Assembly (NCBI GenBank): GCA_965261085.1
Contig: OZ253442.1
Coordinates: 3,488,001-3,552,000, forward strand
Origin: a bacterium
GTDB lineage: Bacteria > UBA8248
Reading direction: 5' to 3'
Length of the DNA stretch: 64,000 nt
Shown: positions 1-9,484 of the stretch, piece by piece
How the letters are laid out: the number at the start of each line of letters is the position of its first letter
Numbering within the stretch: the first letter of the stretch is position 1
Position numbers and translations under genes: made by a program
The notes under the pieces: model-generated
The model's database searches: none
What the model saw: the letters and a program-made list of their open reading frames with translations, nothing else
Told to the model about the DNA's origin: nothing

Positions 1-124
1 TGAAGAACTCATCCGTCTTCTCCTCGAAGCGGCGGATCCGCAGCATGTTGCGGTACATCGCGTTCAAGTCCTTTTTCGTCAACCTTTTCGGCTTGGCCGA
101 TCTTCGCTTCGCCCTGGTGGCCAC
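1..124 (-). CDS. TPP-dependent dehydrogenase E1 alpha subunit (pyruvate/acetoin dehydrogenase family), 5' fragment running off the window edge
   Basis: Hand translation from GTG at 124 (GGAGGAGG RBS upstream) gives MATRAKRRSAKPKRLTKKDLNAMYRNMLRIRRFEEKTDEFF. The MYRxMLRIRRFEE motif is typical of E1-alpha N-termini. Confidence 0.8.
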   Translation of the reverse strand, partial: MATRAKRRSAKPKRLTKKDLNAMYRNMLRIRRFEEKTDEFF

Positions 125-248
125 GGCTTCCTCCTCCCGGCGACATCATCAGAATGCAACCGTTGGAATGTCATGAGAACATGATTTTTAGACTTCCATG
201 AGTATCACACGGGGCGGTGGTGGTTCAATCGGCGCGGTGGGCGGGGCG

Positions 249-935
249 TCACGCAGGCTTCGCGGCGTAGCGCAGGAACAACTCATCCCCGACGCGCCGG
301 ACCTCCACTAAGTTAAGCCCCAGAAATTCGCCCGAGCGGAAGCCCGGCCCGTCCATGAGCGTCGGAGCGGATGCTCCTCCCGCCAGCCAGGGGGTGAGCG
401 TCACGTGAAACGCATCGATATAACGGGCGAACTCCCAAATCAGGGAACCTCCGCCCTCTATCAACACGTTCTTCATCCCGCACTCCCACAGATGGGCCAG
501 CACCTGGGGCGCGAGGGAATCCGCCTCATCGAGAACGACAATTTGCGCGTCCCCGGTTTGGGTTTCCTCAAGACGACGTGCCCCTTCCGGAGCGGTGAAG
601 ATGAACCGCTCGACCTCATCATTCTCGAACCAGGGCAATTTCTTGGGGAAAACGCCGCTTTTCGTGATGAGGGCGTTCGCCGGATGCGGCGGGAGGCCGC
701 GTTCTACGCGCTCGCGCACGAGGGATTCCTCACGCACCCGCGCGGGATGGCGCGCGGTCCTGAGCGTCTGGCCGCCCCATATCACGACGTCGGCCTTGGC
801 TCTCAGGCGATCCATCTCCAGGCGATCCGCTCCCGAACCCAGAGAGAAGTCCTCGTGGTCGTGGCCCGCGATTTTTCCGTCGAGCGTCATCGCCAGATTC
901 GCGAATACGAAGGGTTTGTCCATGAAAATTCTCAT
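249..935 (-). CDS. RibD C-terminal domain / dihydrofolate-reductase-fold protein
   Basis: Motifs AMTLDGKIA, DVVIWGGQT, VLIEGGGSL, LAGGASAPT. Confidence 0.85.
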   Translation of the reverse strand: MRIFMDKPFVFANLAMTLDGKIAGHDHEDFSLGSGADRLEMDRLRAKADVVIWGGQTLRTARHPARVREESLVRERVERGLPPHPANALITKSGVFPKKLPWFENDEVERFIFTAPEGARRLEETQTGDAQIVVLDEADSLAPQVLAHLWECGMKNVLIEGGGSLIWEFARYIDAFHVTLTPWLAGGASAPTLMDGPGFRSGEFLGLNLVEVRRVGDELFLRYAAKPA

Positions 936-1031
936 CCTGCGGTTGTGGTCCGCCCGCTTAAGGCATTAAAGTTCGTTGTCACCTCATGCTCGTGAAAGCT
1001 GGCATTCATCAGACAAAGGAGAGAAAACGCC

Positions 1032-1682
1032 ATGGGTGAATTCGACCAAAGGGTGGACCTTCCCGCACTCGATTTTCAAAAGCTCAACATCGGCCCCTAC
1101 AGCAACAACGTATACGTGTTGACGTGCAAGGCGACGAAGGAATGCGTCATCATCGACACGTCTCACTCCGCCGAGCCGATTCTCGCCGCGAGCGAAGGCG
1201 CCACGCCCAAATACATTCTACAGACCCATTGCCACGGCGACCACATCGACGCGCTCGACGAGGTGCGCAGCCGGACGGGCGCGCCGCTGGGCCAGCACGC
1301 CGAGGACGCCAAAGAGTTCGGCATCAGCCCTGATTTCACCATCGCGGACGGCGAGGATATCAAATTCGGCGAGATCACGCTCAAGGCCATCCACACGCCC
1401 GGCCACTGCAAGGGCATGTTGATGTTCCACTACCCGGGCCACTGCGTCTGCGGGGATACGATTTTCCCCGGCGGCCCCGGCAAGACCTGGAACCACGGGC
1501 AACTGCTGACGCTGATCGATTCCATCCAGACCAAAGTGTTCGCCCTGCCCGACGACACGGTACTCTACCCCGGCCACGGGGCGAACAGCACCGTCGCGCA
1601 GAGCAAAGAAGAGGTCGCCAGATTCCAGGCCGCGGGAAGGCCTGCGCCGGATGAATTCGGGGACGTGACCTGGGACGGCTAG
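1032..1682 (+). CDS. MBL-fold metallo-hydrolase (glyoxalase II-like)
   Basis: THCHGDHI, HTPGH, GDTIF and PGHG motifs. AAGGAG RBS upstream. Confidence 0.9.
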   Translation: MGEFDQRVDLPALDFQKLNIGPYSNNVYVLTCKATKECVIIDTSHSAEPILAASEGATPKYILQTHCHGDHIDALDEVRSRTGAPLGQHAEDAKEFGISPDFTIADGEDIKFGEITLKAIHTPGHCKGMLMFHYPGHCVCGDTIFPGGPGKTWNHGQLLTLIDSIQTKVFALPDDTVLYPGHGANSTVAQSKEEVARFQAAGRPAPDEFGDVTWDG

Positions 1683-1883
1683 AGATAAAACGCTACGGGA
1701 TGAATTCGGAGCGCGCGATCCTTTCAATCGCGCGACTTGGGACGGCTAGAGATAAAACGCTACGGGATGAATTCGGAGCGCGCGATCCTTTCAATCGCGC
1801 GACTTGGGACGGCTAGAGATAAAACGCTACGGGATGAATTCGGAGCGCGCGATCCTTTCAATCGCGTGACTTGGGACAGCTAA
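1671..1883 (+). repeat. Tandem repeat, three 67-bp units plus a partial unit, each containing a hairpin
   Basis: TGGGACGGCTAGAGATAAAACGCTACGGGATGAATTCGGAGCGCGCGATCCTTTCAATCGCGCGACT starts at 1671, 1738 and 1805, with a partial copy at 1872. Internal inverted repeat CGCGCGAT/ATCGCGCG. Confidence 0.95.
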
Positions 1884-1902
1884 ACAACAAAGGAGCCACA
1901 CA

Positions 1903-2295
1903 ATGAGTTCAGCCGGCATCGTATTCGATCACGTGCACGTCATCAGCAAAGACCCCGAGGCGAGCGTGAACTGGTTCGTCGAGAACTTGGGGGGCGAGCG
2001 CGGAGATGGCGGCGTATTCAAGGGCGCGCCGCAGATTCCGGTAAAATTCAACGGCGCCACGGTCATCGTTCGCGGAGAAAGAACGGGCGAGAGCGCCGGA
2101 ACCAAGGGCGGCCTCGAATGGGGGACGGATCATTTCGCCTTCCAGGTCGCAGGGGATTTCCAGGCCTATTGCGACGACCTCAAGGGAAAAGGTGTGAAAT
2201 TCACCGTGGAACCGGTACAATTCAACCCGGCGACGCGAATCGCCTTCATCGAGGCGCCCGATGGCGTCAGCATCGAGTTGCTGCAAAGAGCATGA
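1903..2295 (+). CDS. VOC/glyoxalase family protein
   Basis: FDHVHV, DHFAFQV and AFIEAPDGVSIEL motifs. AAGGAG RBS. Confidence 0.9.
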   Translation: MSSAGIVFDHVHVISKDPEASVNWFVENLGGERGDGGVFKGAPQIPVKFNGATVIVRGERTGESAGTKGGLEWGTDHFAFQVAGDFQAYCDDLKGKGVKFTVEPVQFNPATRIAFIEAPDGVSIELLQRA

Positions 2296-2335
2296 CGCCG
2301 CGGAGCCTTTGCTCCGCCCTCCAAGACCGCCCGGT

Positions 2336-3412
2336 TTGAAGAGGAACACCTTGTTTCACCTCGCGCGTATCGCAGCGCCGTGTCTCCTGGTTGCGGCGCT
2401 CGGGTGGATTGTTGCGCCGGTGGCGCATCCGCAGGATAAGCGCGCTCATGAACAGGAGGAACTCCCTCCGGAACCGCCTCTGGGCCTCGACGACGTGCCC
2501 GTGCCCGAGAACAACCCCATGACGCGGCCCAAGGTCGAACTCGGCAGAATGCTGTACTTCGAAAAACGCTTCTCCGGCGACGGGAAGGTCTCCTGCGCTA
2601 CGTGCCACATGCCCCGGCGCGGATTCTCGAACGCGCGCCAGTACGGAACGGGCTTTGACGGCAGGCTCACGCTGAGGAACGTGCCCACGGTCATCAACGC
2701 CGCCTACAACGAATCCCAGTTCTGGGACGGACGCGCCGGAAGCCTTGAGGAGCAGGCCAAAGGCCCCATTCTCCACCCGAGCGAGATGGCCTCGAGCGAG
2801 GCGAAAATCATCCGGACGCTCGGCGCGATTCCAGAATACCAGGAGCGATTCGCAGAGGCGTTCGGAAGCCCCGTCATCAGCCTTAAGCGTGTGGCGCAGG
2901 CCATCGCCACCTTCGAGCGCACGGTCCTTTCCGGCAATTCCCCCTTTGACCGCTGGAAATTCGGGGGCGACAAATCCGCGCTCTCGCCTCGTGCGATCAA
3001 AGGGTTTAAGGTCTTTACAAGCAATGGAAATTGTGTGAAATGCCACTTGGTGGATGAATTCAGCGCACCCTTCACGGACGATAAGTTCCACAACATCGGC
3101 ATCGGGATGGACAAGAAGCCTTTAGAGATCGGACGAGAGAAAATCACCAGAAAAATAAAGGACCGGGGCAAATTCAAGACGCCCACGCTTCGCCACATCA
3201 ACCAGACGGCGCCCTATATGCACGACGGCCGCTTCAACACGCTGGAGGAAGTGACCGATTTCTACGACAAGGGTGGGCACCCGAACCCTCACCTCGACCC
3301 GGACATGAAGCCCTTGAAACTCACGAAAACCGAGAAACAAGACCTAATCGCCTTCATGAGCGCGCTCACGGGCGATCTCCCGGAAATCAAGGCCCCCGAG
3401 TTGCCGAAATGA
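2336..3412 (+). CDS. Diheme cytochrome c peroxidase superfamily protein, MauG-like. Start uncertain (TTG 2336; open frame from 2261).
   Basis: Signal-peptide-like N-terminus, CATCH and CVKCH heme motifs, QFWDGRA, FKTPTLR, TAPYMHDG..TLEEVTDFY. Confidence 0.9.
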   Translation: MKRNTLFHLARIAAPCLLVAALGWIVAPVAHPQDKRAHEQEELPPEPPLGLDDVPVPENNPMTRPKVELGRMLYFEKRFSGDGKVSCATCHMPRRGFSNARQYGTGFDGRLTLRNVPTVINAAYNESQFWDGRAGSLEEQAKGPILHPSEMASSEAKIIRTLGAIPEYQERFAEAFGSPVISLKRVAQAIATFERTVLSGNSPFDRWKFGGDKSALSPRAIKGFKVFTSNGNCVKCHLVDEFSAPFTDDKFHNIGIGMDKKPLEIGREKITRKIKDRGKFKTPTLRHINQTAPYMHDGRFNTLEEVTDFYDKGGHPNPHLDPDMKPLKLTKTEKQDLIAFMSALTGDLPEIKAPELPK

Positions 3413-4209
3413 AGATCGATAAGACGAATGCTACGGCGTCACCGGAGCCGATGGGAGTGAACTCCAAGACTGCCCAAGCGAGGCTGCTGAAAACGCATTT
3501 CGCGGGGATTTTTTTCGTCACCCTGGCGGGAATTTTCTCACTCCTCCTCGCGCCCGCCCTCTCGTATGGCGCAGATGTCGAGGAAGGAAAATCCCTTTTT
3601 GAGAAAAACAATTGCGGAAGCTGCCACACCCTGAAAGGACCTGAAGCCAGAATACTCCCGCCCGCACGCCACGGAATCAAAGGCCCCTCGCTCTGGTATG
3701 CGGGCAGCAAATTCCGGCCCGGCTTTCTGTCGAAATGGCTGGCCAAACCCGACCCTTTTCGCGGCGTCATCTACGGAACCATGAAGCGGGGAAAATTCCC
3801 GCATCCCGTCCTCCCCGAAAAGGAGGCGGCAAAAGTCGCGGCCTATCTGGAATCCTTAAAGGACCCCGAAATGCCGGTGGGCGTGGTTCCGGGCTGGAAG
3901 AAAATCCCCAGAAAAGTGCTTAGGCGGGCGAGAATCCTGTTTCAGAAAAAACAGCCCTGTTATTCCTGCCACATGGTCGCGATTCGAAAGACGGTTTACC
4001 GGGCGAAAGTCGAGGTGGGCGGCCACAGCGCGCCTCATTTTAGAGAGGCGGGACGCAGGCTGAACGCCGATTTCATCGTGGCTTTCCTGAAAAAGCCGGA
4101 GCGCTACAATCCCAACGGCAGAATGCCGGTGTATGGGGAGGAGGCGTTCACGAAGCTGAGCGAGAAGGACTTCATCGCTCTCGCCGCATACATCGCGAGT
4201 TTCAAATGA
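3409..4209 (+). CDS. Diheme c-type cytochrome
   Basis: CGSCH and CYSCH motifs, hydrophobic N-terminal signal/anchor, GPSL and RMP cytochrome c motifs. ATGA overlap with the upstream gene. Confidence 0.85.
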   Translation: MKIDKTNATASPEPMGVNSKTAQARLLKTHFAGIFFVTLAGIFSLLLAPALSYGADVEEGKSLFEKNNCGSCHTLKGPEARILPPARHGIKGPSLWYAGSKFRPGFLSKWLAKPDPFRGVIYGTMKRGKFPHPVLPEKEAAKVAAYLESLKDPEMPVGVVPGWKKIPRKVLRRARILFQKKQPCYSCHMVAIRKTVYRAKVEVGGHSAPHFREAGRRLNADFIVAFLKKPERYNPNGRMPVYGEEAFTKLSEKDFIALAAYIASFK

Positions 4210-4649
4210 AGCGTTCATTTTCATCGCATCGCGTGAGCAGAATACTCGCTCTCGCTTTCATCATGGTTGCAACGGCGAGCGCCCCCCTCCTTGTCAGTGC
4301 GGACGAACCGCCAAGCCGCGTGAGTGCGCAGGAGAATTTCCGCTGGTACTGCATCCAGTGCCACGGCCCCAAGGGAGACGGCAAGGGGGTGAACAACACC
4401 AAGAAGCTGCCTGTGAGCCCCCGCAATCTCACCGACGGCAAGGACATGGCCCAGTTCTCCGATGAGGACATGGTGCGCACCATCACTCGCGGAGGCGGGG
4501 CGAGCGACCTATCCCCCATCATGCCGCCCTGGGGCAACGTGTTTACAAAACAGGAGATTCGTGATTTGGTGGCCCTGATACGCAAGATGTGCAATTGCCG
4601 CTTCGACCCCAAGGCGAAAGAGGCGTTTTTGAAGCAACAAGGCCGGTAG
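4206..4649 (+). CDS. Monoheme c-type cytochrome
   Basis: Signal peptide, CIQCHG, MPPWG distal Met motif, C-terminal CxC. ATGA overlap. Confidence 0.88.
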   Translation: MKRSFSSHRVSRILALAFIMVATASAPLLVSADEPPSRVSAQENFRWYCIQCHGPKGDGKGVNNTKKLPVSPRNLTDGKDMAQFSDEDMVRTITRGGGASDLSPIMPPWGNVFTKQEIRDLVALIRKMCNCRFDPKAKEAFLKQQGR

Positions 4650-4660
4650 GTTCTTCCAGA

Positions 4661-5631
4661 ATGCGCGACATCATGCTCTCTCTTGTCATTCTCGCTCTTT
4701 TAATTTCGATGCCTGCGTCCGCGCTGGCGGCGGGAGAGCGGATTTTCGTCACGAACACGCGCGACGGCACCCTGAGCGTCATCTCGCGCGATACCCACGA
4801 GGTCATCAAGACGATCCCCGCGGGCAGGAAGGCGAACCGCCTCTCGCTCGCGCCCGACGGACGCCACGCCTACCTCATCAACGACGGCAGCGCCTATGTG
4901 CGCGTTTTCGACACGCATACGCTCAAATTCATTCGCCGCGTGGCGCAGGACGCGACCCCTACAACCTGGCGTTCTCCCCAGACGGCGCGCGCGCCTATTT
5001 CGTGAACACCTATTCGGACAACGTGACGATTCTCGACGTGGCGGCCCGTAAGGTCATCGGCCTCATCAAGCACGGGGGGAACAACCCGGTGAACATCAAG
5101 CTGAGCCCCGATGGACGCTTTGCCTTCGTGGCGAACGAGTTGAGCGAGGATGTTTCCGTCGTCGATCTCGAAACTGGAAAGCCGATCAAACAAATCGATG
5201 CGGGCCATTACATCGAGGGCATCGACGTGACGCGCGACGGTAAACACCTCTACGTCATGAACGGGGAGCGCCACTCCTACAGCGTGGTCGATCTCGATAC
5301 CTTGGAAATCATCCGTACCATTAAACTCTCCGGCGAGCCGCACGACGCCCTCATCACGCCGGACGGAAAGTTCCTCTACGTCACCCTCCCGCACATCAAC
5401 AGGGTGTCCGTCTTCTCGCTCCCCTCGCAAAAGCGCGTCGCCAGAGTGAAGCAGGGCGTGCGGCCCGACCTCATCGCCTTCACGCCCGACGGCGCGCTCG
5501 CCTACGTGACGAACAGGGATTCAAAAGAAGTGTTCGTGATGGATGCGAAAAGCCACAGCAACATCAAGAAAATCCGCGTGGGCAACGGGGCGCACGGCGT
5601 GCTCGTCGTGCCGCCCGCGCCGACGAATTGA
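4661..5631 (+). pseudogene. YVTN/YncE-type beta-propeller protein split by a 1-bp frameshift near 4944 (pseudogene or sequencing error)
   Basis: First part (from ATG 4661) has a signal peptide plus IFVTN and APDGRHAYL repeats. The continuation AGRDPYNLAFSPDGARAYFVN lies in the frame of ORF 5002-5631, which carries further PDG/YVTN repeats. Confidence 0.8.
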
Positions 5632-5796
5632 TGGTTTTTTAAGTAAGACCCGGTGGTAATTTCAACAAAATGAAAACAACCACTCATCACGAATAAACGG
5701 CATGACACGAGCGATGGGAAAGTTGCTTTTCCCGTCCCCGTGTATCATATTCGAGAGGCGACTCCACTCCCAATCGACACCCGAGGAGAGGAAAAG

Positions 5797-6066
5797 ATGA
5801 CGGAATTTGAAATGGCAACGCTTACGATTTCACGGGTTGGACTCGATATTTCACGGACTGGGCTTTGGATTTCGGGCATTCACGCCTTGATTACGCTTGT
5901 CGTGGGCGGCGTTCAATGTTTTCTCATCTTGTATGGACTAAAACAGATGAACCGCACTTCGGTAGCCAGAGACAAGCAGCATGAGGAAACCATGGCCGCT
6001 TTAGACACCCGCCACCGCGAAAACATGAAAGCTCTGGAAACCTTGATCGAAAGAACGTCGAAGTAA
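5797..6066 (+). CDS. Small hypothetical membrane protein, copy 1 (89 aa; one TM helix plus coiled coil)
   Basis: GAGGAGAGG RBS, ATG 5797, hydrophobic segment IHALITLVVGGVQCFLILYGL. Reading frame conserved with the paralog, with many synonymous changes. Confidence 0.8.
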   Translation: MTEFEMATLTISRVGLDISRTGLWISGIHALITLVVGGVQCFLILYGLKQMNRTSVARDKQHEETMAALDTRHRENMKALETLIERTSK

Positions 6067-6373
6067 ACGGAGGAAAAGACCGGCGCTTCACCTGATTTCC
6101 TTTGGCATTCCTTGAGTATGCGTCCTCTCAGGTGTGTGCGCGGCACCACTAAAAGGAACAGCAACCCGCCACGAGAATCCCGTTGCCCGACCCGCCATTT
6201 TTTGTTGGCTCCTTTTTAGCGCGGTTTCGCTCCATTATCCCGATGCAATCCGTTCTACCGGAAATCCGAACAACGGCAGGATGCGGAAGATGGCGAAAGT
6301 TGCTTTTCCCGTCCCCGTGTACCATATTCGAGGGGCGACTCCACTCCCAATCAACACCCGAGGAGAGGAAAAG

Positions 6374-6622
6374 ATGACGCAGTTTGAAATAGCGACGCTT
6401 GAGATTTCACGTATAGGGCTTTGGGTATCGGCCGTTCACGCCTTGATTACGCTTGTCGTGGGCGGCGTCCAATGCCTTCTCATCTTGTATGGTCTGAAAC
6501 AGATGAGCCGCGCTTCGGTAGCAAGAGACAAGCAGCATGAAGAAACCATGGCCGCTTTGGATACCCGCCACCGCGAAAGCATGAGAGCTCTGGAAACCTT
6601 GATTGAAAGAACGTCGAAGTAA
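6374..6622 (+). CDS. Small hypothetical membrane protein, copy 2 (82 aa)
   Basis: Paralog of 5797-6066 with the same RBS context and ATG 6374. Confidence 0.8.
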   Translation: MTQFEIATLEISRIGLWVSAVHALITLVVGGVQCLLILYGLKQMSRASVARDKQHEETMAALDTRHRESMRALETLIERTSK

Positions 6623-6822
6623 ACGGAGAAACAGACAGGCGCTTCGCCTGATTTTCCTCATCATTCCCTAAATATTCAAAAATCTACCGCCGGGCGCAGC
6701 CCGTCTTTTCCCCTCAACGACCCTCGTGTTGCGCGATTCCGGCCCTGATATTCGCCCTCTCCCACGCGCAGCTTTACTCTCATTCACTCACCGCCGCTCA
6801 TTCCCACGCAACGCGGGCCCTA

Positions 6823-7707
6823 TTAACCACCCTCGCCCGTGGCGCAGCGAAAGCCGATCTTGTTGTTCCTGTAATCGGGGGGGCGATGGTAGCGGTTGTG
6901 CGCCGTGGCCCAGGCGATGGGGCTGCCCCAGGATGCGCCTCGAACGACTCTGGTTTTTCCCTTTGACGGCCCGTGCGGGTCGCGCTCGGCCATTTTTTTA
7001 TACGCTCTCGATTGATAGCGGTCGGCCGCCCATTCCCAGACGTTGCCGGACATGTCGAGCGCGCCGAACGGGCTCGCGCCTTTCGGAAAGCGGCCCACGG
7101 GCGCGACGACGGGGAACCCGTCCTTGCCACCTTTGAGGTTGGCTCTCATCACATCGCGTTCCTTGCCCCAGGGGTAGCGCCTACCGTCTCCGCCGCGCGC
7201 CGCGCGCTCCCATTCCGCTTCGGTGGGCAGGCGCCTGCCCGCCCACTGGCAATACGCTTCCGCATCGGGCCAGCTCACGTGGGATACGGGTTGTTTCGGA
7301 ACGCTTTTCCAGCTTGATTTCGGGCCTTCGGGCCGACGCCAGCTCGCGCCCTTCGTTTTTCGCCAGCCGCCTTTTCCTTTTCTCAGAGAAGCGTCCCATG
7401 TCCAGGACCATTTCCGCTTCTCGGCCGTCGTCTTGTATCCCGTTTGGGCGACGAAACGAGCGAAGCGCTCCGCCGTCGCCTCTGTCTGGCCGATCCAGAA
7501 ACCCGGAACGAAAACCTTTCTGGGCGGACGCTCATCCTTATCGCCGGATTTGCTGCCCATCACGAACCACCCCGATGGAACGTGGACCAGCGTGGCGCCG
7601 TCGAAGCCGGATATTTTCTGGCTGGCCTGCTGCGCCTGTGCAAACGAGCCGGTGACGCCCAGGAGGCAGGCGACCAGTAGATAAACGAAGGGTCTCATGG
7701 GATACAT
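6823..7707 (-). CDS. Formylglycine-generating enzyme (FGE-sulfatase/SUMF1) domain protein, exported
   Basis: [43 protein letters not shown] motifs. Signal peptide. Confidence 0.9.
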
Positions 7708-7774
7708 CGCGTACTTATCTCCTGTGCTCGGGCGATGGTGGGAAAGGTAGAAAACGACCCCCAGCGGAGAAGCC

Positions 7775-8203
7775 TTAATCCCTCAGCGGGTCTCTGGGGT
7801 CGTCCACGAACGTCGTGCCCGCTGCTTCCTTGTTGGGCATGCCGCCGTAGGTGAATATCAACTCCGCCGGCTCGTCTCCGCTCGGATTCTCCTGGCCGTG
7901 GATGCACCCACACGGAAAATAGACGAAATGGCCGACGGGCACCTCTTTTCTGGTGATCTCCTCCCCCTCTTTCCAGTAAATGTTGATGGGGCCTTTCGCC
8001 ACGTAAATCGTGGTGTCGCAGTTTTTGTGAAAATGAAGCGCGTTGCGCCCCCTGGGCGGGATGATGGTTCTGCCCATCGTGATGGTATCGGTGCCCGTCG
8101 TCTCGCGATTCACGCCCCAACGGATATCGTAGGGCGGCTCATAGGCCTTGTCCTCGTCTACGTCCAGGGAATTTACGACTTGCGGGATCGGCAAATCCGC
8201 CAT
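7775..8203 (-). CDS. Cupin domain protein
   Basis: [14 protein letters not shown] and [13 protein letters not shown] cupin motifs. Confidence 0.85.
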
Positions 8204-8257
8204 GATGATGCCTCCGAAAATGTGGGTAAAAATCCAAAAAACCGGAAAATTCCCGCT

Positions 8258-9484
8258 CTAACCTTCGGGCGGAACGCTCCAGGAAACGATGTTCTTCTCT
8301 CTCAAATCCTCGAGTTCGTCAGACCCCATGCCGAGAAGATCGCCCAGAACCTCTCTCGTGTGCTCTCCCAGATAAGGCGCCCGCGTGTACTTCATCTGCG
8401 CGCCCGGCATTCTGATGGGCGGCCCCAGGACCTTCATCCTCCCCGCCACGGGGTGGTCCATCTCCACAATCATGTCCCGCGCCAGAATCTGGGGGTCTTC
8501 CATCGCCTGCGCCACGGTGTTCACCGGCGCGAAGGGAACGAAGCCCTGAAGCAGTTCGGTCCACTCCGCGTTCGTTTTCTCCCTGAACGCCTTTTCGAGG
8601 ATGTCCAGCAGCGCTTCACGGTTCTCGAAACGATCCTGGGCCATTTGGAAGCGCGGGTCCTCGGCCACCTCCCCAATACCCATGCGCTCGACGAGGATGG
8701 GGAAGAAACTCTGCTTGAGGCAAAGCACGCTTATCCAGCCGTCTTTCGTCTCGAAATTCTGTGCGGGCACCATCGAGGGGTGCGCGCTCCGGGAAAATTT
8801 TTGCGGCACGTAGCCGCAGTTGAGCGCCCAGGTGGCCATGTATGCGAGTTGAACCAGGGCGCCGTCCATCAGCGCCACGTCGACGTCCCTGCCCTTGCCG
8901 GTGCGGCCGACTTCCCACAGCGCAGCCAACAGGCCCACGAGCGATATGAAACCACCGGTGAAATCGACAAAGCTCACGCCTGCCTTGGTGGGGGGGCCGT
9001 CAGGCTCTCCCGTTAAATCCATGATGCCCGCGTAGGCCTGCATGAGGTAATCATAGGCCGGCTCACCCGCTCTGGGGCCCGTCATCCCGTAGCCAGAGAG
9101 AAAACAGCACACGATTTTCTCGTTGTAGGGACTCAGATGCTTATACGTTATTTCGAGTTTCTCGGGCGCCGTGCCCCTGCAATTCGCATAGAGCGCATCC
9201 GCCTTGGGCACGAGTTTGCGCAATATCTCCCTGCCCTCGGGCGTGCGAATCCTGAGCGCGACGCTCTTCTTGTTGCGGTTGAAGGACTGAAAATAGTAGC
9301 TGTCGTTACCCGGAAGGGCGTACGGGGGAACGGGCCGCGCGGAATCGCCACCCACGGCGTGATCCTCTATCTTGATGACTTCGGCCCCCATATCCGCCAA
9401 CAGTTGCGAGGCCAGCGGCCCCGCCCCGAACTGCTCGACCGCCAGTATCCGCAGCCCTTCCAGCGGAAGTCGACCATCCATCAA
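8258..9484 (-). CDS. Class III CoA-transferase (CaiB/BaiF family)
   Basis: LLADMGAEVIKIE, FNRNKKSV, GYGMTGP, AYD, APYLGEHT motifs. Confidence 0.93.
   Translation of the reverse strand: MMDGRLPLEGLRILAVEQFGAGPLASQLLADMGAEVIKIEDHAVGGDSARPVPPYALPGNDSYYFQSFNRNKKSVALRIRTPEGREILRKLVPKADALYANCRGTAPEKLEITYKHLSPYNEKIVCCFLSGYGMTGPRAGEPAYDYLMQAYAGIMDLTGEPDGPPTKAGVSFVDFTGGFISLVGLLAALWEVGRTGKGRDVDVALMDGALVQLAYMATWALNCGYVPQKFSRSAHPSMVPAQNFETKDGWISVLCLKQSFFPILVERMGIGEVAEDPRFQMAQDRFENREALLDILEKAFREKTNAEWTELLQGFVPFAPVNTVAQAMEDPQILARDMIVEMDHPVAGRMKVLGPPIRMPGAQMKYTRAPYLGEHTREVLGDLLGMGSDELEDLREKNIVSWSVPPEG

Follow-up and report, generated by a model that had tools for sequence, protein, structure and literature searches.

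Within a 64,000-nucleotide stretch of the bacterial contig OZ253442.1 (assembly GCA_965261085.1, positions 3,488,001 to 3,552,000; hereafter the window), we analysed a cluster of five genes that encode, in order, a VOC/glyoxalase-fold protein, a cytochrome c peroxidase (CcP)-like di-haem enzyme, a di-haem and a mono-haem class-I cytochrome c, and a YVTN beta-propeller (Table 1). Foremost, the enzyme carries a Tyr where canonical CcPs have the Met ligand of the C-terminal haem. We tentatively read the cluster as a periplasmic redox module that consumes H2O2 and is made up of this MauG-type enzyme, its own c-type cytochromes, and a ligand-binding propeller, a reading to which we give slightly less than an even chance. 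As a preliminary description of this DNA had it, all five genes lie on the plus strand in the list of open reading frames (ORFs), five CxxCH motifs can each be located in the gene set, and signal-peptide-like N-termini are found on four of the proteins, the VOC protein being the one without. Our literature search, with subscription journals outside its coverage, found no paper on the gene cluster.

Tyr-type di-haem enzyme

Both motifs singled out in that description, TAPYMHDG..TLEEVTDFY and QFWDGRA, are present in the enzyme, with a Tyr at the canonical Met position. In pairwise alignments, this residue (Tyr335) falls on the Met ligand of the CcP from Nitrosomonas europaea (protein data bank (PDB) ID: 1iqc) and on the Tyr of MbnH (PDB ID: 6e1c). 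Moreover, equal-length arithmetic over the C-terminal piece (query 16-57 against chain 261-302) places it at chain position 294 of MauG, the matches to which stop at residue 343 of the query and residue 302 of the chain, and the PDB includes an entry named 'Y294H-MauG'. An alignment with MauG, CcP, and MbnH had been proposed as a check, and here a Tyr, not a Met, occupies the haem-2 ligand column. Across 121 aligned rows (the enzyme and 120 homologues), this column reads Y 116 times, F three times, a gap twice, and Met never, Tyr being present in 116 among the 119 homologues with a residue there. Gln165, Glu175, Asn146, and Trp155 are invariant in all 121 rows, and Trp155 is aligned to the equivalent motif in 1iqc and in the CcP of Shewanella oneidensis (PDB ID: 3o5c). 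We take Gln165 and Glu175 to be the distal residues of the peroxidatic haem, Trp155 to be the inter-haem Trp, and Asn146 to be the Asn of the calcium site. The position of the loop His in 1iqc is filled by I, V, F, or M in every one of the 121 rows.

Among PDB sequences, the enzyme matches 1iqc (E 8.6e-55) and 3o5c (7.9e-54), and thereafter MbnH (2.8e-41), MauG (~1e-25), and BthA (3e-13). A fold search with its structure model (predicted local distance difference test, pLDDT, 91.8) gave fold-similarity scores (TMq) of 0.80-0.83 for canonical CcPs listed as mixed-valence (active) forms, 0.81 for MbnH, 0.73 for MauG, and 0.70-0.72 for oxidised or closed peroxidase forms. For the C-terminal domain by itself, the best PDB match is MbnH (6e1c, E 3.3e-13), and both PYMHDG and the Tyr coincide in that alignment.

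According to PMC11892367, canonical enzymes have a His/Met-ligated and MauG-type enzymes a His/Tyr-ligated C-terminal (E) haem, and on this definition we class the enzyme as MauG-type. Its two CxxCH motifs (CATCH and CVKCH) lie in a CCP_MauG fold and, by alignment, Tyr stands for Met. As in a canonical CcP, it has the distal Gln and Glu and the inter-haem Trp (121/121 rows), though not the His/Met ligation of the electron-transfer haem, since Tyr occupies the Met column. With 263.8 bits against a cut-off of 443.85 for the MauG equivalog (TIGR03791), and 244.8 against 362.85 for the MbnH family (TIGR04039), it falls short of both. Judged from these alignments and scores, the protein appears to be of the MauG type and to lie outside the MauG and MbnH equivalogs, and its peroxide site looks canonical.

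Peroxide enzymes and substrate genes in the genome

The source genome is a single contig of 4.27 Mb and is 96% complete. In the whole of it, we found no match to catalase (PF00199) or to KatG-type peroxidase (PF00141). Four CCP_MauG matches are present, namely the cluster gene, a tandem pair of paralogues, and one weak match of partial length, and all three full-length genes carry the FY..GG Tyr motif, which by eye reads FY..GGG in the paralogues. The paralogues (379 and 368 aa) are located at G000:C1:35500-37640 (locus L002), beside what by eye is a Tat-signal Rieske-type protein, and the fourth, weak match falls within a 663-aa frame at G000:C1:4029949-4030176. Nitrospina gracilis, a nitrite oxidiser, is described in PMC3578206 as being without catalase and superoxide dismutase, and a cytochrome c peroxidase is proposed there for H2O2 removal.

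It had also been claimed that no substrate gene is recognisable, and genome-wide profile searches agree with this, as neither MauA (PF02975) nor MbnP (TIGR04052) gave a match in the 4.27 Mb, with the PF02975 control likewise silent in every genome.

Distribution of the cluster and its homologues

Relatives in the family of the source genome carry the submitter labels Nitrospinota, Nitrospinaceae, or 'Candidatus Tectomicrobia'. CcP-like orthologues at E <= 1e-60 occur in 34/36 other family genomes versus 3/24 genomes outside the family, and the full order of VOC, CcP, di-haem, mono-haem, and propeller genes is kept in 18/20 family loci and in each of the ten metagenome contigs that reach far enough. 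Of 41 other genomes in the family, 35 have the di-haem gene, 32 the propeller, and six neither; in the three genomes discordant for the two, the di-haem gene lies near a contig end. Two genomes, G016 and G029, have only the VOC and CcP-like genes, the cytochromes and propeller being gone from the locus, and our search with this propeller as query found no orthologue elsewhere in either. Moreover, the flanking RibD-like, metallo-beta-lactamase (MBL)-fold, formylglycine-generating enzyme (FGE)-like, cupin, and CoA-transferase genes show synteny equal to that of the cluster, and conservation within the family is therefore modest evidence for a functional unit.

Outside the family, we surveyed 79 loci from many phyla whose Tyr-type homologues are 38-52% identical to the enzyme. 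Here, neither the VOC nor the di-haem gene stands beside a homologue in any of the 79 loci, and a single, weak mono-haem-like match was seen. The expected conservation of the gene neighbourhood thus stood within the family but not beyond it. In four Acidobacteriota loci, a YVTN propeller is found two genes downstream of the CcP homologue. Between the two in L057 and L107 is a lipoprotein of ~240 aa that has a CarboxypepD_reg domain and in which an H...CxxHxxM motif can be seen by eye, and in L107 and L120 a multicopper oxidase lies directly upstream of the CcP, lipoprotein, and propeller genes. The 123 co-directional neighbours in a Pfam survey are heterogeneous, and include CarboxypepD_reg proteins, metallophosphoesterases, DUF1264, periplasmic binding proteins, cupredoxins, an SBP56 protein, and NHL, PQQ-like, and PD40 propellers. 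Another candidate, L126 from Nitrospira, in which 1.8 kb separate the CcP homologue from an FGE-like gene downstream, was dropped on account of the unrelated genes in between.

Fusions of the Tyr-type domain were also observed (P0348-P0360, P0339-P0340, P0305-P0319, P0241-P0254, and P0316-P0347). Among the best 120 long homologues, it is joined to SCO1/SenC in eight, to NHL/SGL propellers in two, and to WD40 propellers together with a second CcP-like domain in 11, and further fusions are to CN-hydrolases (tandem CcP pairs) and Ser/Thr protein kinases. PYMH[DN]G is present in 29/30 fused proteins inspected, with one kinase fusion as the exception, and an FY..GG-type Tyr motif was seen by eye in those 29. 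A loose but recurrent link of Tyr-type enzymes to propellers and copper proteins is visible. Orphan Tyr-type enzymes are the norm in a very large clade and not a rarity. Of the earlier picture of an orphan MauG-type module, the Tyr-type assignment and the missing substrate gene hold, while being an orphan is the rule among such enzymes and the gene set is confined to the family.

As a separate observation, 31-40% of the sampled words of window positions 4600-5400 occur in public runs labelled sponge metagenome (X2-X5), and four coded runs contain 67-100% of them; over the sponge or marine metagenome runs X2-X14, the share is 0.12-0.40. The organism may be sponge-associated.

Proposed function and alternative readings

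In the mechanism that we infer for an H2O2-consuming module, the peroxide would react at the N-terminal haem, where the distal Gln165 and Glu175 are kept. This haem would be permanently open, and we read it so because the loop His by which many canonical peroxidases close it is replaced by a hydrophobic residue. The oxidising equivalents would then pass via Trp155 to the Tyr335-ligated C-terminal haem and be shared, and the two co-encoded class-I cytochromes c would deliver electrons and quench them, such that the net reaction would be a cytochrome-c-dependent reduction of peroxide in a catalase-free bacterium. The propeller, co-inherited with both cytochromes, may bind a metal or a small ligand that either supplies this chain or draws on it, rather than being a protein substrate. 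The gene set, its motifs, the aligned ligand positions, and the shared inheritance are read directly from the genomes; the catalytic steps, the direction of electron flow, and the part played by the propeller are what we infer. On the whole, co-encoded c-type cytochromes fit an electron-fed peroxidase better than a MauG-like protein oxidant.

The cytochromes themselves seem to be ordinary class-I carriers, in that both match the di-haem cytochrome chain 6h5l_B weakly (E 3e-5 for the di-haem protein). A reading of 6H5L as a hydrazine-synthase-binding cytochrome was dropped, as preprint 10.64898/2026.07.28.741245 names it as the hydroxylamine oxidoreductase of Kuenenia stuttgartiensis; the matches therefore indicate only a di-haem electron carrier. 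At E <= 1e-30, the di-haem protein returned 15 representative clusters from a library of 1.84 billion proteins.

Several points weigh against cytochrome-fed peroxide reduction. MauG-type enzymes reportedly perform poorly as dye-linked peroxidases (PMC11892367), and efficient turnover with cytochrome c is therefore not a given. The propeller has no role in plain peroxide reduction. Since G016 and G029 lack cytochromes and propeller, the enzyme evidently can work alone, and outside the family none of the 79 homologues is accompanied by these cytochromes. Lastly, the synteny of the flanks makes conservation within the family weak proof of a functional unit.

Some of these same points would favour two neighbouring units, with the CcP-like enzyme, alone or with the VOC protein, working by itself and the cytochromes forming a separate periplasmic unit with a ligand- or cofactor-binding propeller, a possibility we regard as unlikely. 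Such a division would suit the VOC-and-CcP loci of G016 and G029, the six family genomes without both di-haem gene and propeller, and the equal synteny of the flanks. It would also suit the spacing, as the trio is coupled more tightly (an ATGA overlap between the two cytochrome genes, kept also in relative G008, and 11 nt between the mono-haem and propeller genes) than the CcP-like gene is to the di-haem gene, these two being 66 nt apart and not overlapping in G008. Moreover, the propeller fold resembles the cofactor-binding propellers of NirN/NirF/cd1 and BtuG. In contrast, the trio lies directly 3' of the CcP-like gene in all 18 complete family loci and the ten long metagenome contigs, the four Acidobacteriota loci repeat a Tyr-type CcP, a small redox-like lipoprotein, and a YVTN propeller, and the fusions join Tyr-type CcPs to propellers of the NHL/SGL and WD40 kinds.

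Beta-propeller, its relatives, and its possible ligand

In the window, the propeller gene is split into two frames (4661-~4942 and ~4943-5631), one base being missing after 4942 relative to three relatives, which read CGCGTG-C-GCGC at this site. We compared the window with contigs of four runs (X15, X16, X18, and X20). Those of X16, X18, and X20 (depths 55.7, 46.3, and 16) carry an additional C after position 4942 and are otherwise near-identical to the window, with 4-13 differences in 801 bases, while X15 (depth 4.63), possibly the source sample of the assembly, is the sole run of the four to agree with it. Because the gene is a single frame in 18/18 related loci and intact in the three deeper runs, the break most likely reflects an error in the assembly or else a private mutation.

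A model of the intact orthologue from G008 (pLDDT 95.8) has 28 strands in a regular arrangement of seven four-stranded blades. Its top fold match is an archaeal S-layer YVTN domain (PDB ID: 1l0q, TMq 0.94) and the second-best is hydrazine synthase beta (TMq 0.80), while an ESM Atlas search returned generic YncE/lactonase clusters only, and the score for the PQQ-catabolism-associated propeller TIGR03866 (106.5 bits) remains below the 287.3 cut-off. The residues T8, N9, T10, N36, R37, Y78, N79, E137, E180, H205, D247, N262, R263, and H289 are invariant among the orthologues and an outgroup of 35-39% identity, and in the model map to where the inner strands start and the second strands end. On the usual propeller topology, they would ring the central channel on the top face and form a candidate pocket for a ligand or metal.

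The outgroup consists of YVTN propellers of ~320 aa in loci L151-L214, on soil-type metagenome contigs. Copper genes stand beside them in 10/10 long loci examined, with CopD-cytochrome c-AhpC/TSA fusions in L158, L160, L198, and L206, CusF in L154, L173, L176, L185, and L188, and CopC in L185 and L186; ZnuA and a P19-like Fe transport protein are found in these clusters too. The outgroup family may be an undescribed periplasmic copper protein.

This neighbourhood, together with the invariant pocket in common, is the starting point for a rather unlikely alternative, namely a metal-linked (copper-type) module resembling MbnH/MbnP, in which the propeller binds metal and the enzyme and cytochromes oxidise the metal or prepare its site. 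AztD offers a precedent as a propeller-shaped periplasmic zinc chaperone. Consistent with such a module are the multicopper oxidase upstream of the CcP genes in L107 and L120, the eight SCO1/SenC fusions, and the closeness of the C-terminal domain to MbnH, a protein associated with copper homeostasis by the title of its PDB entry. However, a CcP-like gene is missing from all 64 loci of the outgroup propeller, the cluster contains no cop, cus, or SCO1 gene, and MbnP is absent from the genome. Moreover, the central positions differ, being STWPAH and GDAMG (Trp, Met, and His) in the outgroup versus NNPVN and GHYIEG in the window family, and the ligand may therefore differ from that of the outgroup. 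The specific proposal that the enzyme and cytochromes would use H2O2 to oxidise or hand on a metal (copper or another redox metal) on a metal-binding propeller seems improbable to us. If true, it would describe an MbnH/MbnP-like metal acquisition or detoxification without Trp-to-kynurenine chemistry in a catalase-free, marine (possibly sponge-associated) member of Nitrospinota, would supply part of the very large orphan FY..GG clade with a physiological role for the first time, and would account for the recurrence of Tyr-type enzymes next to propellers, SCO1, cupredoxins, and multicopper oxidases or in fusions with them.

A protein modification like that of MauG and MbnH, with a bis-Fe(IV) enzyme oxidising residues of the propeller or a cytochrome to a protein-derived cofactor, was an idea put forward in the preliminary description, and we now find it very doubtful. 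In its favour, MauG, MbnH, and BthA, three enzymes that form bis-Fe(IV), are marked out by their His/Tyr ligation (PMC11892367), the targets of MauG and MbnH are partner proteins (PMC11951088), and beta-propellers recur beside or fused to Tyr-type enzymes. Yet the propeller orthologues have no Cys in 18/18 and no Trp in 14/18, and tryptophan tryptophylquinone (TTQ), cysteine tryptophylquinone (CTQ), and kynurenine chemistry on the propeller is therefore excluded. Nor is the propeller a methylamine dehydrogenase (MADH) heavy chain, for it fails the corresponding model TTQ_MADH_Hv (30.4 bits versus a cut-off of 454.45) as well as the quinohaemoprotein (QH)-amine-dehydrogenase beta model (55 versus 223 bits). 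In addition, the enzyme reaches the equivalog cut-off of neither MauG nor MbnH, MauG itself does not depend on a chain of cytochromes, and the VOC protein cannot reach the periplasm. A co-encoded protein as target in the manner of MauG has thus lost both of these candidates, the cytoplasmic VOC protein and the propeller without Cys or conserved Trp. Co-folding of the CcP-like enzyme with the propeller scored 0.01 against a mark of 0.32, in a run made without controls, and carries no weight either way.

His/Tyr ligation is currently taken as a sign of special chemistry with H2O2 as the oxidant, as in MauG, MbnH, and BthA. To our knowledge, only these three His/Tyr enzymes have been studied, and thousands of orphan Tyr-type homologues exist. 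The present cluster pairs one such orphan with its probable native redox partners in a host without catalase and without a Met-type peroxidase. If the enzyme is the working periplasmic peroxidase of this host, equating Tyr with a protein modifier would be too narrow a rule, and if it acts on the ligand of the propeller, a new class of partner would be defined. With four soluble exported proteins, the system is tractable, as one representative of a large uncharacterised clade rather than a singular case.

Gene layout and flanking features

Positions of the cluster genes and their motifs are collected in Table 1.

Table 1. Features of the gene cluster and its upstream neighbour, in window coordinates
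Feature	Position	Strand	Evidence or remark
MBL-fold hydrolase gene (glyoxalase-II-like)	1032..1682	+	Pfam Lactamase_B E 1.2e-18; directly 5' of VOC gene
VOC/glyoxalase-fold protein, 130 aa	1903..2295	+	Pfam Glyoxalase E 5.2e-10; no signal peptide
Tyr-type (MauG-type) di-haem peroxidase-like enzyme	2336..3412 (likely start; ORF open from 2261)	+	Pfam CCP_MauG (PF03150) E 1.7e-57
CATCH, N-terminal (peroxide-reacting) haem motif	2594..2608	+	kept in 120/121 aligned rows
Trp155, inter-haem Trp in QFWDGRA	2723..2725	+	W in 121/121 rows
CVKCH, C-terminal haem motif	3032..3046	+	kept in 120/121 rows
Tyr335, predicted sixth ligand of C-terminal haem	3263..3265	+	alignments to 1iqc Met and MbnH Tyr
Di-haem class-I cytochrome c	3409..4209	+	Pfam Cytochrom_C, two stretches, E 1.7e-16; signal or anchor peptide
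CGSCH and CYSCH, haem motifs of di-haem cytochrome	3613-3627 and 3958-3972	+	
Mono-haem class-I cytochrome c, signal peptide	4206..4649	+	Pfam Cytochrome_CBB3 E 2.1e-8
CIQCH, haem motif of mono-haem cytochrome	4350..4364	+	
Seven-bladed YVTN beta-propeller, signal peptide, split in two frames here	4661..5631	+	NCBIfam beta_rpt_yvtn (TIGR02276) 108.4 bits, above 27.85 cut-off
1-nt deletion breaking propeller frame	4942..4943	+	comparison with relatives and metagenome contigs

Two ATGA overlaps had been noted, and both can be read (3409-3412 and 4206-4209), though the first hinges on the choice of start codon, ATG 3451 being an alternative start of the di-haem cytochrome. For the CcP-like gene, close homologues of the enzyme are mostly 353-358 aa, and in-match stop codons are present in 12/39 homologue rows, 11 of these 12 with a match that begins at query residue 19 or earlier. 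Translation probably does not cover the initial 25-30 codons of the ORF open from 2261, and the true start would be TTG 2336, with which the VOC and CcP-like genes do not overlap. A promoter and terminator scan of 900-7000 gave no more sites than in shuffles, and an Rfam scan of window positions 1-9000 at E <= 0.1 gave zero matches.

The VOC gene is 5' of the CcP-like gene in 20/20 related loci, including two without the downstream genes, and the MBL-fold gene is directly 5' of the VOC gene in 19 of these, the 20th locus ending at a contig edge. By its sequence the VOC protein is predicted to be cytoplasmic; lacking a signal peptide, it cannot be a periplasmic partner, and its absence beside 79/79 distant homologues further ruled it out as partner or target of the enzyme. 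Its probable companion is the upstream MBL-fold gene, not the periplasmic module. The MBL-fold protein itself reaches 91 bits with NCBIfam GSH_gloB, below the 200.8 cut-off. The gap between these two genes is filled by a 67-nt unit repeated 3.2 times (1667-1882, 97% matches) and without Rfam match; as the gap is only 88 nt in relative G008, the array has expanded in this genome.

Downstream of the cluster, a tandem duplication (5718-6119 and 6295-6675, 87-90% identity) encodes a single-helix membrane protein of ~90-108 aa without family match, and relatives have 0 to 3 copies of this unit between the propeller and FGE-like genes. Convergent to the cluster is the gene of a secreted protein with an FGE-sulfatase domain (6823-7707, minus strand; Pfam E 2.1e-64), which shows weak SenA, EgtB, and PvdO similarity and is downstream of the cluster in 18/20 family loci.

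Comparison with known systems

Closest overall, in both sequence and fold, are the canonical CcPs of N. europaea (1iqc) and S. oneidensis (3o5c), with TMq values of 0.81-0.82. The distal Gln and Glu, the Asn, and the Trp are all kept, and c-type cytochromes are at hand as donors. In contrast to these enzymes, the window enzyme has Tyr for the Met ligand, lacks the loop His, and has a propeller as an additional partner. MbnH-MbnP from Methylosinus trichosporium (6e1c) has in common the di-haem CCP_MauG fold (TMq 0.81), the inter-haem Trp, and the pairing of an exported enzyme with an exported non-haem partner. Here, however, there is no MbnP, a Trp-poor propeller would be the partner, and two extra c-type cytochromes are present. 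MauG-preMADH from Paracoccus denitrificans (PDB ID: 3l4m) shares the Tyr at the MauG 294 position, the Trp between the haems, and a neighbouring beta-propeller, whereas the sequence match is only at E 1e-25, the TMq is 0.73, MauA has no match, and the propeller is not a MADH heavy chain.

Hydrazine synthase (HZS) beta-gamma from K. stuttgartiensis (PDB ID: 5c2v) likewise combines a CcP-like di-haem subunit with a seven-bladed propeller, and HZS-gamma matches the enzyme weakly (E 3.4e-7). Membership is nonetheless ruled out, with scores far under the cut-offs (gamma NF052341, 45.6 versus 625 bits; beta NF052340, 93.5 versus 560 bits) and an enzyme much closer to real peroxidases. Moreover, the 28-strand pattern of the propeller model has no sixth-blade insertion such as PMC12758564 describes for HZS-beta, and no alpha subunit was seen in the cluster. 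BthA from Burkholderia thailandensis (PDB ID: 6nx0) is likewise an orphan Tyr-type di-haem enzyme without known substrate, and is described as combining bCCP-like and MauG-like chemistry (PMC6405878). It matches the window enzyme weakly and in the N-terminal part only (E 3e-13), and is reported in PMC11892367 and PMC6405878 to be without the inter-haem Trp and calcium site, whereas the window enzyme retains this Trp.

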